Shown: piece after piece, positions 11,201 through 13,877 of the stretch
Layout of the letters: each line of letters starts with the position of its first letter
How positions within the stretch are numbered: the first letter of the stretch is position 1
Made by a program: the position numbers
DNA from: a virus
Taxonomy: Duplodnaviria > Heunggongvirae > Uroviricota > Caudoviricetes
Strand: one strand, 5' to 3'
IMG/VR virus record: IMGVR_UViG_2671181033_000010
Length of the DNA stretch: 13,877 nucleotides

Positions 11201-13877
11201 AGCAACGCAACCTGACGGGCAACGGTTACGCGCTTCGAGTTCCGTCCAGGCGGTTACGTGGATGATTTGGGATTCTGACGCGCCAAAGATGATAAAGCGC
11301 CAGACAAAGTAAGGGCGTGCGGATACAGCCATGTGAAAGGCCTCCTTGTACTGTTTTAAGGAGTCACCGCTGGAGTTCCTACGCTCATAAAGGGCGGTGA
11401 CGCTGGCGGGGGTAGGAATACCGGCGTACAAGGAAACCGGCCAGCCTTTCGGCTGCCCCACCAGCGCCACCATAGATACAGTACGGGCCTTGCCGCTGGG
11501 TATGGTTGCGCGATGGCATGACACAAAAAAAGACGCTGGGCGCGCCTGTGTCGCCTTGTACTGATTAAACGGGTTCCTACGCCCGATCCCCGTTTTATAA
11601 GGGATAACCTCAGTATATGCCGCTTTTTTGCTTAAGTGGTCGGATGTGTTGCGAGAGAAGTTTGTGCGAAAAATACCTGCGTTTTCTTTGAAAGCACATA
11701 ATAACATCACGTTATTTATGTTTATGCAGTATGTCGCAAAGCGACCTGAATCATCACGCAAATTACAACCATAAAAAATACCTGTGCTGTGATATGAGGT
11801 ACTACAGCGCACCGCTTTACGGGTACAGACAATGACAAATGAAGAACTACAGGAAATCGCATTATCCATACTTGAGCGACAGCGCGAAAAAGTACGCCTG
11901 GAACGCGAGTCTTTGCTTAATCCCTCTCCTCTCACCAGACCAAAACGATTTGCGCTTGAGGCATTTCTGGACAAATACCCACGGCGATTAATCTCGCCTA
12001 AAAACCGATAGCGATCCGCTTTTGCTTCTCTGACTCCATAAAACGAATAACAACCATCAGCGCCGTGGTGTGAGGTGCTGCGTCGCTCCGCTGTACAGGA
12101 AATAAGTATGGATTTACCACCAGAAGATGAGAAATTTTTACGACAACTACAACACCAACTACTCATGGATGCCATTGTCGAGCAGCAAACAGGGAGCAGC
12201 CCCATTGATTCATCGCTGAATAAAAAGGCCGCCTCCCGTTTTATTGAAAACAGGATAAGGCGCGGAAAAACATGTGATGACGAGTCAAAGGCATCACATA
12301 CAAAAGCTAAAAAATTTGCCCTTGAAGATTTTGTCGAGAAATACCCACGGCGGTTAAAAGCCACTAAAAACCGACCGCCTGGCTGATAGCCTTGTCCACC
12401 AGCTACACTCATGGCATAGTTGGTGATGCGCTTGATTTCCTTTATCTCCACTGGCGACCCTTTCGTGGTCGCCTTTGTTTTGCCTGCCATTCCTGCATCA
12501 TGCGGATATTCGCGCCGTACAGGGCCACCAGCGCGATAATTTAATAAAACCTCCTTCTGATAATGCTTAACTTGTTTCATACGCTCAGCAGCGAAATGGC
12601 TCACGATATGGTGCATGTAATCAGAATGGTTGAGGCTCAGTTGTGCGAACGTATCCGCCGTGTCGATGTACAGGGCGGCAGCGTTGCGGATGTCAGGCAT
12701 GTTCATGTTCTCCCAGACGACGGGCCAACCAGCGCTGGTAATCATCGGTGAGTTCTGTGAAAAGATTATTTATTGCATCAGTTCTCCATTCCTCAGCTTC
12801 TGACTTAAATTTATCTTTATCACTTATGTCTATAAGAAAATCATCAAAATCAGAGTCTTCGAAAATATCTTTATCTGCAAAATTATTCCAATCCTCCCTT
12901 AACTGATCCAATGTGGACTCTTTAAATCCACAAGGATATACAGAGTAGGCCTTTTGTCCCTGTTGAAGAGTTACACCCCCCATTGTGTGAATACATAAAG
13001 CAACATATGGGGCGCAAGCTGTGCCATACTCCTTAAGAAAGTTAATTGCCGTATCAGATAATATTTCGCAAAGTGCTTGTTCGTATTTAATTTGTTCCTC
13101 ATGCGCACTAAACCATAAAAACACGCGTTCGTAGCGATAAGCATCGTTGTTAACTAATTCCGCACCAGGAGTACCTATTCCTGATGTATCGATAGCAATT
13201 GCTTTAACCGTATCAAAATCAGCAGAAAACCACTCACCAGAACGGCGTTCTGATGTAAGTTTTGCATGAATAGCTAATTCGACTTGTCCGTAATTAACAA
13301 ATGGCCCTAACACCTCGACTTTAGTGATTACTATGCCGCTACCAGTGGATAGCTGTTTCATTCTGGCTGAAACATTTCTGGTTTTTCCAACCTTAACTAA
13401 TCCAATGTCAGAAAGCGCCACATAAATATAACCGCCTTCATGATTGGGAGGGATAACATAATTACGCATGATTCACCCCCAGAGACGGCGCTGACGTCAT
13501 CAGGCTGGCGAACGTCTCCATGCGGCGGGCAACCTCCCGCACCGCTTCGGTCGGTGTCATGCCGCTCTGTATCGCCTCGTCAAATGCTGCCTGCTCGATT
13601 TTCTGCATGACTATCAGTAAGCCTAACTGTTGCTCGCTGGCTGTGCTGCGTTCTCCAGCCACCAGACCTGTAACACGGTTCTCTGCGCGTGCCAGATTAA
13701 TGTAATGGTGACGTTCTGCGCCCAGTGCTTTGAGTCCGTCACGGCTTTCGTGATAGCCTGGCAGATATTCGCGGCGGACTGGTTCAGCGGCGCGATGCTT
13801 CGCGAATGCCTTTGTAACATCCAGCTTGAACTGGTTGAACCGCCCCGGGTTTCCTGGAGAGTATTTTATCTGTGAAC

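Follow-up and report, generated by a model that had tools for sequence, protein, structure and literature searches.

Do two short open reading frames that lie opposite a 528-codon stop-free frame encode proteins, or is the leftward frame the only coding unit at this locus? The question arises in a 13,877-nt Caudoviricetes stretch (IMG/VR record IMGVR_UViG_2671181033_000010; the whole stretch is called the window, and all coordinates refer to it), which carries ORF1 and ORF2 in tandem on the plus strand (Table 1). As laid out in the original prediction, the pair is divergent from the leftward isrK/C4/Icd/primase operon and convergent with the T5orf172 gene. Pipelines and records disagree on this stretch: some place here a protein of 350-670 aa called 'Ash family' or 'Icd-like', others a pseudogene or small hypothetical proteins, and some nothing at all; RefSeq places a minus-strand 'ash family protein' pseudogene here and leaves the plus-strand ORFs unannotated. 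The reading we prefer, at a probability of about 0.55, is that ORF1 and ORF2 are paralogous protein-coding genes of one small family, phase-locked antisense inside an eta-like ORF and forming the opposing side of a satellite switch.

Table 1. Position, strand and main attributes of the features discussed (window coordinates).
Feature	Position	Strand	Remarks
ORF1	11832-12011	+	ATG start, 59 aa, MTNEELQ-type N-terminus
ORF2	12108-12386	+	ATG start, 92 aa, MDLPPEDEKF-type N-terminus
ORF1 leader hairpin	11784-11810	+	stem GUGCUGU / ACAGCGC
ORF2 leader hairpin	12060-12086	+	degenerate copy
First 3'-UTR hairpin after ORF2	12397-12425	+	conserved in relative L034
Intrinsic-terminator-like hairpin and U-run	12453-12482	+	closes the plus-strand operon
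Divergent control region	11606-11783	.	between the isrK 5' end and the ORF1 leader
Stop-free 528-codon read-through ORF	11159-12745 (stop to stop 11162-12769)	-	P4 eta analogue
isrK-like RNA	11526-11605	-	51.8 bits, gathering score 50 (Rfam)
C4 / P4-CI-type antisense immunity RNA	11390-11477	-	81.3 bits, gathering score 45 (Rfam)
T5orf172 gene	12693-13469	-	convergent with ORF1/ORF2

The shared C-terminus that first drew attention to the pair is present in both products, which end K(R/K)FALE(A/D)F(L/V)(D/E)KYPRRL..(P/T)KNR. BLASTP aligns them over a 25-residue C-terminal block (16/25 identities, E 4e-10), and in the DNA this corresponds to a 75-nt direct repeat (11934-12008 and 12300-12374) that is 75% identical. 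Both ORFs match the pattern tested for the family block, [FLY]-x-[LI]-[ED]-x-F-[VL]-x-K-[YHC]-P-R-[RK]-[LM]-K-x-x-K-[NT]-R(-PPG), at or near the stop codon. ORF1 ends at KNR*, three residues short of the usual family ending KNRPPG*, and its exact 59-aa sequence is absent from a collection of 15 billion proteins. The exact sequence of ORF2 has been deposited as an E. coli hypothetical protein and is found on 16 contigs; an alternative GTG at 12075 would lengthen it to 103 aa. Shine-Dalgarno sequences are weak, with the exception of that of ORF2 (AGGA at 12097-12100).

These ORFs belong to a family of 55-95-aa proteins, which we call the KYPRRL family, with a variable helical N-terminus and the conserved C-terminus (K/R)FALE(D/A)F(V/L)xKYPRRLKxxKNRPPG, in which replacements are conservative (E/D, L/I/V/M, K/R, A/S). 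A profile search returned 68 protein clusters, every one from E. coli or Shigella. There are 15 family representatives among 1.84 billion proteins, and the GTDB species representatives contain two loci only, one in E. coli and one in Shigella. Frameshifted members are common in databases. Part of the high DNA identity that otherwise dissimilar genes show in this C-terminal block could stem from recombination instead of selection.

The family had not been recognized at the outset, and sensitive profile and structure searches have not changed this. ORF1 and ORF2 match nothing in Pfam, PHROGs or NCBIfam; the best PDB profile hit is ribosomal S14 at E ~0.8-1, and Foldseek with the AlphaFold2 model of ORF2 gave no PDB match and none below E 2.7 in BFVD. 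By tblastn the family has no match in the phage collection, where no phage record, P4 included, carries it (a YlcI-type query also returned nothing there), and its motif strings were not found in the literature. The model predicts helices at residues 5-28, 32-60 and 71-78 followed by a disordered basic tail, with low confidence as a fold (pLDDT 69.7, pTM 0.27). An Arc/MetJ ribbon-helix-helix assignment was rejected, there being no Pfam Arc match and only helices in the model, with no N-terminal strand. A four-cysteine zinc site is impossible, as ORF1 lacks cysteine and ORF2 contains a single one. ORF1 and ORF2 most likely are genuine small genes of an unrecognized family, and the family itself is most likely an uncharacterized one, limited to E. 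coli and Shigella and carried mainly by P4-like or Gram-negative PICI-type satellites.

Each family gene is a unit: a leader hairpin and a weak Shine-Dalgarno sequence precede the variable helical N-terminus, and the conserved C-terminus consists of an amphipathic helix and a basic tail (FALEDFVEKYPRRLKxxKNRPPG). At least one such unit, often with a YlcI/YnfO or Arc-like ribbon-helix-helix gene in first place, forms a short rightward operon. The operon lies downstream of the region divergent from the isrK/C4 immunity-RNA promoter, where it presumably starts, and is closed by a conserved terminator immediately ahead of the upstream gene on the leftward strand, which is T5orf172 in the window and alpA or a Bro-type gene in relatives. 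It is antisense, over its entire length, within the leftward stop-free ORF. The ribbon-helix-helix-type co-operonic proteins are small (YlcI/YnfO; the Arc-like matches are below cut-off). Neighbouring plus-strand genes in relatives L005, L035 and L037 match NCBIfam YlcI_YnfO_N (NF041551) with 59 bits against a cut-off of 30; ORF1 and ORF2 have no match to this 42-residue N-terminal domain at E up to 1.

The leaders of ORF1 and ORF2 are similar across ~85 nt, and the strings originally quoted for their ends are found as CCGCTTTACGGG at 11812-11823 and CCGCTGTACAGG at 12088-12099. Both contain the family leader hairpin (GCGCYG / loop ..GAGGWAC.. / CRGCGC), 20-25 nt before the start codon. At ORF1 it reads GUGCUGU / loop GAUAUGAGGUACU / ACAGCGC and is followed by CCGCUUUACGGG and the start codon. 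The ORF2 copy, GCGCCG(U) / loop / CGUCGC, carries a single C.U mismatch in its stem, and its fold does not improve on that of shuffled sequences. Across the family, three pairs of this hairpin have changed on both sides, and its G.U pairs are functional on the plus strand only. An inner extension (columns 14-16 with 24-26) was discarded, since the T-to-C change in column 16 is uncompensated. We also rejected the hairpin as an activator site of Ogr/Delta type (TGT-N12-ACA): its arms are not constant (CGT/ACG, TGT/ACA), and a location ~22 nt before the ATG is out of place for a -55 site. Downstream of ORF2, the first 3'-UTR hairpin (CACCAGCUA...UAGUUGGUG) has a G.U pair on the plus strand. The terminator-like hairpin (GGCGACC...GGUCGCC) with its T-run closes the pair, as had been proposed, and is kept in relatives L005 and L034, the latter distant. 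Motif, leader and terminator recur in dozens of related loci, which is more than chance.

The long antisense frame is also real. It is specific to one frame: that frame has a single stop (its own), and the two other minus frames have 22 and 31. The ORF crosses ORF2 and then ORF1 in antisense, passes through isrK and C4 (both Rfam matches fall inside it) to an Icd-like end, and in the window overlaps the last 77 nt (3' end) of T5orf172, not alpA. In L005 and L037 the leftward frame follows on immediately from the alpA stop codon without a shift of frame, and it recurs in nearly all intact relatives, either as 200-765 codons or as overlapping, tiled open tracks. The isrK-like RNA is a seqA-type C4 RNA target with its own terminator and is the first element of the leftward constitutive transcript; the a and b target sites of C4 are readable in the sequence. 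The Icd-like domain (residues 480-523 of the minus ORF) has its own Shine-Dalgarno sequence and an ATG at 11332 that is overlapped by the C4 b2 target. A separate 'Ash' protein, assumed in the original prediction, was not borne out: the Pfam Phage_ASH match (PF10554, 75 bits, above the gathering score) covers residues 377-476, or window positions 11318-11617, and this interval coincides with the isrK and C4 RNA genes. The match is therefore uninformative on ORF1 and ORF2.

In P4 the equivalent open track has 217 codons and overlaps the end of vis. Translation of P4 eta prevents termination in the immunity region (PMC10111431). The likeness to the P4 left-operon leader (PMC10111431) extends over several features. 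The leftward frame appears to begin at, or overlapping, the end of the gene before it. A constitutive promoter, a target of seqA/isrK type and an RNA of CI/C4 type lie within it, and its last part is a short peptide of toxic type, Icd-like here and kil in P4. On these sequence features the minus frame is an analogue of the P4 eta read-through ORF and no accident; from the frame-specific depletion of stops we infer that its translation suppresses termination here. The locus differs from P4 in the length of the track, and opposite the extra length lies an entire rightward operon that is absent from P4. It also differs in the upstream gene, which in the window is T5orf172 rather than an alpA/vis homologue, and in the presence of two isrK-C4-Icd modules in tandem. 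The P1/P7 immI region (c4 RNA - icd - ant) and Gifsy-1 isrK resemble the locus in the leftward C4/isrK matches, the Icd-like ORFs and the a/b target pairs, but they cover the leftward strand only and offer no counterpart to the small rightward genes.

If only this eta-like ORF were translated, ORF1 and ORF2 would be untranslated open frames and their motif would reflect conservation at the DNA or RNA level. The persistence of the leftward frame in nearly all intact relatives and the strand chosen by RefSeq agree with this, and a pair of open frames is cheap in the present arrangement. All plus-strand genes of the zone lie in a single phase, with wobble positions coincident with those of the leftward frame (at eight loci, 12/12 additional plus-strand genes are in the frame of the first), and this phase lock means that both strands can stay open. 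Given the protein sequence, codon resampling keeps the wobble-coincident antisense frame open with a probability of 0.07-0.74 per gene; the open antisense frame of K-12 ylcI is uninformative, because its P is 0.26. The coincidence of wobble positions and the relatedness of the compared sequences also leave the codon tests on both strands low-powered, and within this limit ORF1-type genes have omega(+) of 0.20-0.37 versus omega(-) of 0.43-0.72, and for the motif mean dN divided by mean dS is 0.37 in the plus and 0.65 in the minus frame. Substitutions silent only in the plus frame outnumber those silent only in the minus frame by 35:17 (neutral expectation 0.495, p 0.007), and by 18 to 9 in the motif alone. 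For the N-terminal 47 codons of ORF2 a single divergent comparison exists, and it does not separate the strands (omega(+) 0.31, omega(-) 0.21), which agrees with untranslated plus-strand frames; between ORF2 and T5orf172 there are too few differences for a minus-frame coding test to tell. Purifying selection in the plus frame, as originally predicted, is thus seen for ORF1-type genes and the motif, and the codon tests favour the plus frame. Furthermore, the plus ORF persists intact where the antisense frame is broken, in relatives L047 and L038, in both of which the gene sits outside a satellite. The minus translation contains 5.5% Cys and 16% Ser, whereas the plus products are ordinary in composition, and minus translations resemble one another only opposite the plus-strand motif, leader hairpin and terminator. 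Same-phase neighbours that match a curated family, hairpin G.U pairs and a terminator that are specific to the plus strand likewise speak against untranslated frames, and we consider that explanation improbable. The original prediction had set the two strands against each other, but that alternative is mis-posed: the minus frame is real and conserved too, and even so it is the plus frame that carries protein-level constraint. Since both strands appear to be used, a real minus frame does not make the plus ORFs false.

A second possibility grants the rightward transcript a function but makes the peptides secondary: the RNA itself would act on the late read-through mRNA, by transcriptional interference or by pairing, perhaps through its structured 3' end. 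The operon is wholly antisense to the leftward ORF and has two conserved hairpins at its end; the leaders are structured and conserved; the element encodes a ProQ/FinO-domain protein; and the 12379-12480 block occurs alone, at ~79% identity, 3' of YlcI/YnfO genes in other E. coli elements, so that the 3' block is conserved even where the plus-strand genes differ. An RNA explains neither the conservation of the C-terminal motif at the amino-acid level across ~40% identical homologues nor the excess of plus-frame synonymous change, and no Rfam family was found on the plus strand here at E up to 1. We regard it as rather unlikely to be the main function; it is compatible with, and does not exclude, the preferred reading of two protein-coding genes. 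It is also conceivable, though doubtful, that the family functions in intact satellites and that the two genes of the window are remnants within a defective element. L001, the identical locus in RefSeq, is situated within dinD, is flanked by two IS3 copies and has neither int (integrase) nor alpA, and the truncated end of ORF1, its absence from the protein collection, the poor ORF2 leader hairpin and the frequency of frameshifted members all fit. Against this, neither ORF is interrupted and each keeps the motif, ~20 genomes share the region at 99-100% identity, its leftward frame is still open, and ORF2 is found unchanged on its 16 contigs. The window copies may nevertheless be decaying, as the missing int and alpA, the shortened ORF1 and the degenerate ORF2 hairpin would suggest. 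Masking of the ribosome-binding sites of the plus-strand genes, as trans targets of the neighbouring C4 RNA, is very unlikely. The ORF2 leader GUACAGGAAA does resemble the canonical C4#1 target GUACAAGGA(G), but the best duplex (-17.5 kcal/mol) ranks no higher than the top 1.6% among all 24-nt windows, ORF1 is no better than the top 2% to 27%, and C4 loops vary from element to element whereas the family leaders hardly change. Regulation by C4 was rejected because this complementarity is unexceptional.

What, then, might protein products of this operon do? The match in position to the P4 rightward operon was confirmed: with the divergent promoter region as reference, the pair lies on the same side, and it is transcribed away from the replication operon. 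The likeness to the P4 sid/delta/psu operon is one of position only. Products are 166-244 aa in P4 versus 59-92 aa here, and the P4 rightward operon is not antisense to eta. ORF1 and ORF2 were rejected as Sid, Delta (Ogr-type zinc finger) or Psu for want of sequence, profile or fold similarity, and by homology they are thus not the 'stripped-down analogs' first considered. The other role suggested at that point, small regulators, fits their ribbon-helix-helix co-operonic neighbours. YlcI/YnfO (NF041551, DUF3950) and Arc-like proteins are encoded directly upstream in relatives and share size class, operon and codon phase with the family, but ORF1 and ORF2 match neither model at E up to 1. The gene order agrees with the 'Bro zone' of Gram-negative PICIs (PMC10111431), situated after the integration genes and before the replication genes and likewise containing Phage_ASH-labelled ORFs and C4/isrK RNAs. 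The description of that zone treats the genes as essentially unidirectional, and the terms 'antisense' and 'opposite strand' are absent from it (PMC10111431); we found no description of antisense genes in this zone in the literature.

By analogy with P4, the leftward ORF would matter by being translated and not by its sequence. Ribosomes arriving on the late transcript from upstream would shield the immunity region, which would prevent Rho-dependent termination and allow expression of the replication genes. The rightward operon would form the opposing half of this switch, its transcription running head-on and antisense to the late transcript. We speculate that the small proteins are regulators or adaptors that act via the conserved C-terminal peptide; this peptide could bind a conserved partner or nucleic acid, the variable N-terminal helix could give dimerization or specificity, and the leader hairpin could set the amount of transcription or translation that reaches each family gene. 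Because fold confidence is low and there is no structural neighbour, it is from context alone that we infer such a role, as regulators or adaptors from an operon opposing the late read-through transcript. A wider model of two-strand coding is put forward tentatively. The long ORF would be selected only for translatability, as ribosome 'cover' against RNA immunity and Rho, and would have provided the raw material on whose opposite strand lineage-restricted small genes emerged or settled, locked to the single phase in which both strands can remain open; the two convergent, mutually antisense units would make an on/off switch.

Long antisense overlaps in bacteria are disputed. The present case combines independent signals on both strands with a phase rule, and it is directly testable, because mutations are possible that are silent on one strand and disruptive on the other. 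An eta-type frame with immunity RNAs and a small operon on the opposite strand would resolve the conflicting annotations. The P4/PICI immunity switch, so far described as RNA-based and unidirectional, would gain a previously unstudied family of small proteins and, probably, an opposing transcription unit.

In the control region, the promoter scan at its threshold listed no sigma-70 consensus promoter on either strand, and a repeat search of 11600-11840 at the settings used reported no inverted repeat. By eye, an imperfect palindrome, CATAATAAC-N5-GTTATTTATG, can be seen at ~11697-11720. Relatives with a YlcI gene in first place carry, also by eye, TTGAAC-N17-CATACT (left unlisted by the promoter scan) together with GTGTT..AACAC palindromes.

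Every element of the arrangement described in the original prediction is present: two small rightward paralogs (ORF1 and ORF2) with a shared C-terminus and a duplicated leader, a terminator behind them and a 528-codon open reading frame on the opposite strand. The last 25 residues of ORF1 and ORF2 are 64% identical (BLASTP, E 4e-10), and the DNA behind them forms a 75-nt direct repeat of 75% identity. The two leaders are similar for ~85 nt and both end in CCGCT(T/G)TAC(G/A)GG.

Features of the ORF1/ORF2 region and of the adjoining immunity RNA genes
Feature	Position	Strand	Remark
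ORF1	11832-12011	+	59 aa
ORF2	12108-12386	+	92 aa
Terminator-like hairpin and T-run	12453-12482		after ORF2
528-codon ORF	11159-12745	-	antisense
isrK / C4 antisense RNA, module 1	11526-11605 / 11390-11477	-	Rfam
isrK / C4 antisense RNA, module 2	11037-11115 / 10924-11011	-	Rfam

The original prediction could not assign the two proteins to a family. A search with ORF2 followed by a profile search does give relatives, 68 protein clusters of 35-141 aa, all of them E. coli or Shigella 'hypothetical proteins' and none with a Pfam domain; searches by sequence and by structure found no neighbour. HMMER, run in full against 1.84 billion representatives, recovered 15 members, only two family loci occur among the GTDB species representatives and the phage records searched gave no match. 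The N-termini fall into at least six types that are unrelated or highly diverged, each predicted or likely to be helical and including an (I/L)xERQRE-like stretch, with a Pro-rich linker after it. Common to all members is the terminal block (K/R)FALE(D/A)F(V/L)xKYPRRLK(A/S)xK(N/T)RPPG-stop, after which we name the KYPRRL family; the most distant members hold its pattern via conservative changes (e.g. FSIEDFLSRRPRRIKSSKNSPP and FAIEDFLKDHSRKMRSGHVRPPH). The exact ORF2 sequence has already been deposited from E. coli, and the truncated 59-aa form of ORF1 is absent from the protein collection searched. Lone, intact family genes are also found in non-satellite chromosomal contexts, between porin and molybdopterin oxidoreductase genes (locus L047, 2501-2689) and beside a YadA-type adhesin gene and IS110 (L038, 4001-4234). 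The ORF2 homologue of an O157-type relic (L004, 3410-3589) retains the first 47 residues and has KTRPPH at its end but not the FALEDFVEKYPRRL block, which indicates an internal deletion or domain swap. The EHEC sRNA Esr41 (L004, 5236-5309; Rfam 108.6 bits) lies ~2 kb from this relic.

The codon-level selection analysis proposed in the original prediction was run on both strands. The two frames share their wobble positions (both + ORFs start at 0 mod 3, minus codons at 1 mod 3), and the test has limited power because differences accumulate at the shared third positions whichever strand is selected. In ORF1-type genes, omega was 0.20-0.37 in the + frame (omega(+)) versus 0.43-0.72 in the antisense frame (omega(-)); for the shared motif the values were 0.37 versus 0.65 (78 pairs). 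On a minimum spanning tree built from six ORF1-type alleles, 35 discordant substitutions are silent in the + frame only and 17 in the minus frame only (p 0.007, against a neutral fraction of 0.495 derived from all possible mutations); the motif gave 18 to 9 (p 0.054). Where the gene lies outside a satellite (L047 and L038), + ORF and motif are intact and the antisense frame carries stops. The first 47 codons of ORF2 (omega(+) 0.31, omega(-) 0.21) offer a single divergent comparison, which is ambiguous. From the lower omega(+), the discordance and the + ORFs that survive where the antisense frame is broken, we conclude that the + frame is under protein-level constraint, at least in ORF1-type genes and the shared motif, within the limited power of the test.

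The minus strand has its own signature. In the window, the frame of the 528-codon ORF contains one stop, its own, compared with 22 and 31 in the other minus frames and 18-27 in the + frames. It stays open through the RNA genes, the control region, both + ORFs, the spacer and the terminator; segment-wise shuffling gives probabilities of 0.006-0.2 for this, with a product of ~1e-10. Nearly all intact relatives have an open track of 200-765 codons, or tiled overlapping open tracks, over the + genes, including the distant loci L034 (547 aa), L037 (353 aa) and L046 (670 aa). Only the O157-type relics have a broken track. In L005 (3311-3323) and L037 (4477-4482) the track begins directly after the alpA stop codon and in the frame of alpA, which suggests that the two may be coupled by termination-reinitiation or stop-codon read-through. 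In P4 the CI RNA and a constitutive promoter lie within gene eta, and Kil corresponds to a truncated Eta; only the upstream late transcript yields full-length Eta, whose translation is coupled to the alpA homologue and prevents termination (PMC10111431). The open track of P4 itself overlaps the end of vis and spans 217 codons, versus 528 here. Since the open track recurs, adjoins the alpA stop in two relatives and fits the P4 precedent, the long minus ORF is best read as a putative enlarged eta analogue. Its protein sequence is not conserved as such among relatives: minus-frame alignment is confined to stretches opposite the + motif, the leader hairpin, the terminator, the RNA genes and Icd, and the translation opposite ORF1/ORF2 contains 5.5% Cys and 16% Ser. 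We conclude that the constraint on the minus frame is to remain open.

The original prediction had set the two strands against each other, a real minus-strand gene counting against the + ORFs. This opposition does not hold: the minus frame, too, appears to be functional, in a different sense. Across eight loci (the window, L005, L034, L035, L037, L041, L046 and L048) all 12 additional + genes share the frame of the first + gene; as the loci are related the chance is not (1/3)^12, and spacer lengths and gene sets differ. The common frame is the one in which synonymous choices alone can avoid antisense stops. With the protein fixed and synonymous codons drawn at random, the antisense frame is open with a probability of 0.07-0.74 per gene. 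Selection on both strands would produce such phase sharing.

RefSeq leaves ORF1 and ORF2 unannotated in E. coli 2013C-4974, which is 100% identical to window 11600-12500, and annotates the minus strand there as a pseudogene of an 'ash family protein'. The Pfam Phage_ASH match (75 bits) covers residues 377-476 of the long ORF (window 11318-11617, minus) and coincides exactly with isrK and C4 RNA genes; the corresponding spot of P4 is labelled 'put. ash gene' and 'cI gene product' in old records. The 'Ash protein family' thus appears to arise from translating the immunity-RNA region of eta-type ORFs. Three of the four isrK/C4 matches exceed the Rfam gathering score, and for each C4 loop the a and b targets are legible upstream in isrK and again over the RBS of the next Icd-like ORF. 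The loop/target sequences of the tandem isrK-C4-Icd modules (minus; 10924-11128 and 11390-11618) differ (GUACAAGG / GUAGGAA versus UACUGUAG / UUAGCAG), which gives two immunity specificities in series. Farther left lie DUF4222, a DUF927 primase, SSB, a ProQ/FinO protein and PerC-type regulators; the region represents the immunity/replication side of a P4-like/Gram-negative PICI-type satellite. The ProQ/FinO-domain protein (5941-6387, minus) adjoins SSB and may, as a candidate RNA chaperone, serve either the C4/isrK RNAs or the structured 3' end of the + operon. From the primase rightward, gene coordinates in 2013C-4974 agree with the window. Its element sits within dinD, which it splits into fragments on either side, and is bracketed by two inverted IS3 copies; it lacks int and alpA, and a T5orf172/GIY-YIG gene occupies the place of alpA in relatives. 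In the window, 89 N followed directly by 37 G (5099-5224) look like a scaffold gap with a sequencing artefact, and hence a draft assembly.

In relatives the + operon comprises one to four small genes: a YlcI/YnfO-type gene (NCBIfam 59 bits, cut-off 30), an Arc/HicB-like gene (matches below cut-off) and one or two family genes. Its position is constant, between the Icd/primase operon and an upstream leftward gene, alpA, at times preceded by a Bro-N/AntA-type gene. The control region of YlcI-first relatives (L005 1989-2046 and its equivalents in L035 and L037) holds three GTGTT(N1-2)AACAC-type palindromes, likely operators for a ribbon-helix-helix protein, flanking a by-eye promoter candidate, TTGAAC-N17-CATACT. 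AlphaFold2 with 34 sequences (pTM 0.27, pLDDT 69.7) modelled a confident N-terminal helix at 5-28 and a second at 32-60, then a short one spanning FALEDFVE (71-78) and, finally, a basic tail that is disordered. The variable helix joined to a conserved terminal peptide, the ribbon-helix-helix company and the site opposite a late read-through transcript lead us to propose, tentatively, that the family proteins may be small regulators or adaptors. A direct link between C4 RNA and the + genes proved weak when tested. The original interpretation was partly right: ORF1 and ORF2 are most likely real small genes and plausible regulators, and they are not analogues of the P4 sid/delta/psu products. We found neither the family nor the antisense operon described in the searchable literature, within which the arrangement is a previously undescribed form of the P4 eta/CI immunity region.

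The same leader precedes every family gene checked inside satellite loci. It forms a hairpin, GCGCYG(U) / loop (G)GYGUGAGGWACU / (A)CRGCGC, followed by AUUGCUUUACAGG and, 7-9 nt on, the ATG. Nearly all of 14 distinct leaders have the 6-bp core paired, with both partners changed in three of the pairs (G-C to U-A, C-G to U-A). Five cells of the alignment are G.U or U.G, which on the opposite strand would be A.C or C.A mismatches. Both features point to a + strand RNA element, although they reflect few independent events. Folding of the canonical copy has a z of -2.9; the two copies in the window fold less well, that of ORF2 with a stem mismatch. A terminator scan picks up the canonical hairpin as terminator-like, and its role between cistrons may therefore be that of a leaky terminator or a processing/stability element. 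Downstream of the last family gene, a conserved hairpin is followed by the terminator, and this block also ends operons whose sole gene is YlcI/YnfO. The two-hairpin block (window 12379-12480) is found alone, at ~79% identity, in other E. coli satellites; both matches inspected of the eight listed (L041 2501-2602, L042 2501-2595) lie downstream of YlcI/YnfO genes. The block may represent a 3'-UTR-derived RNA.
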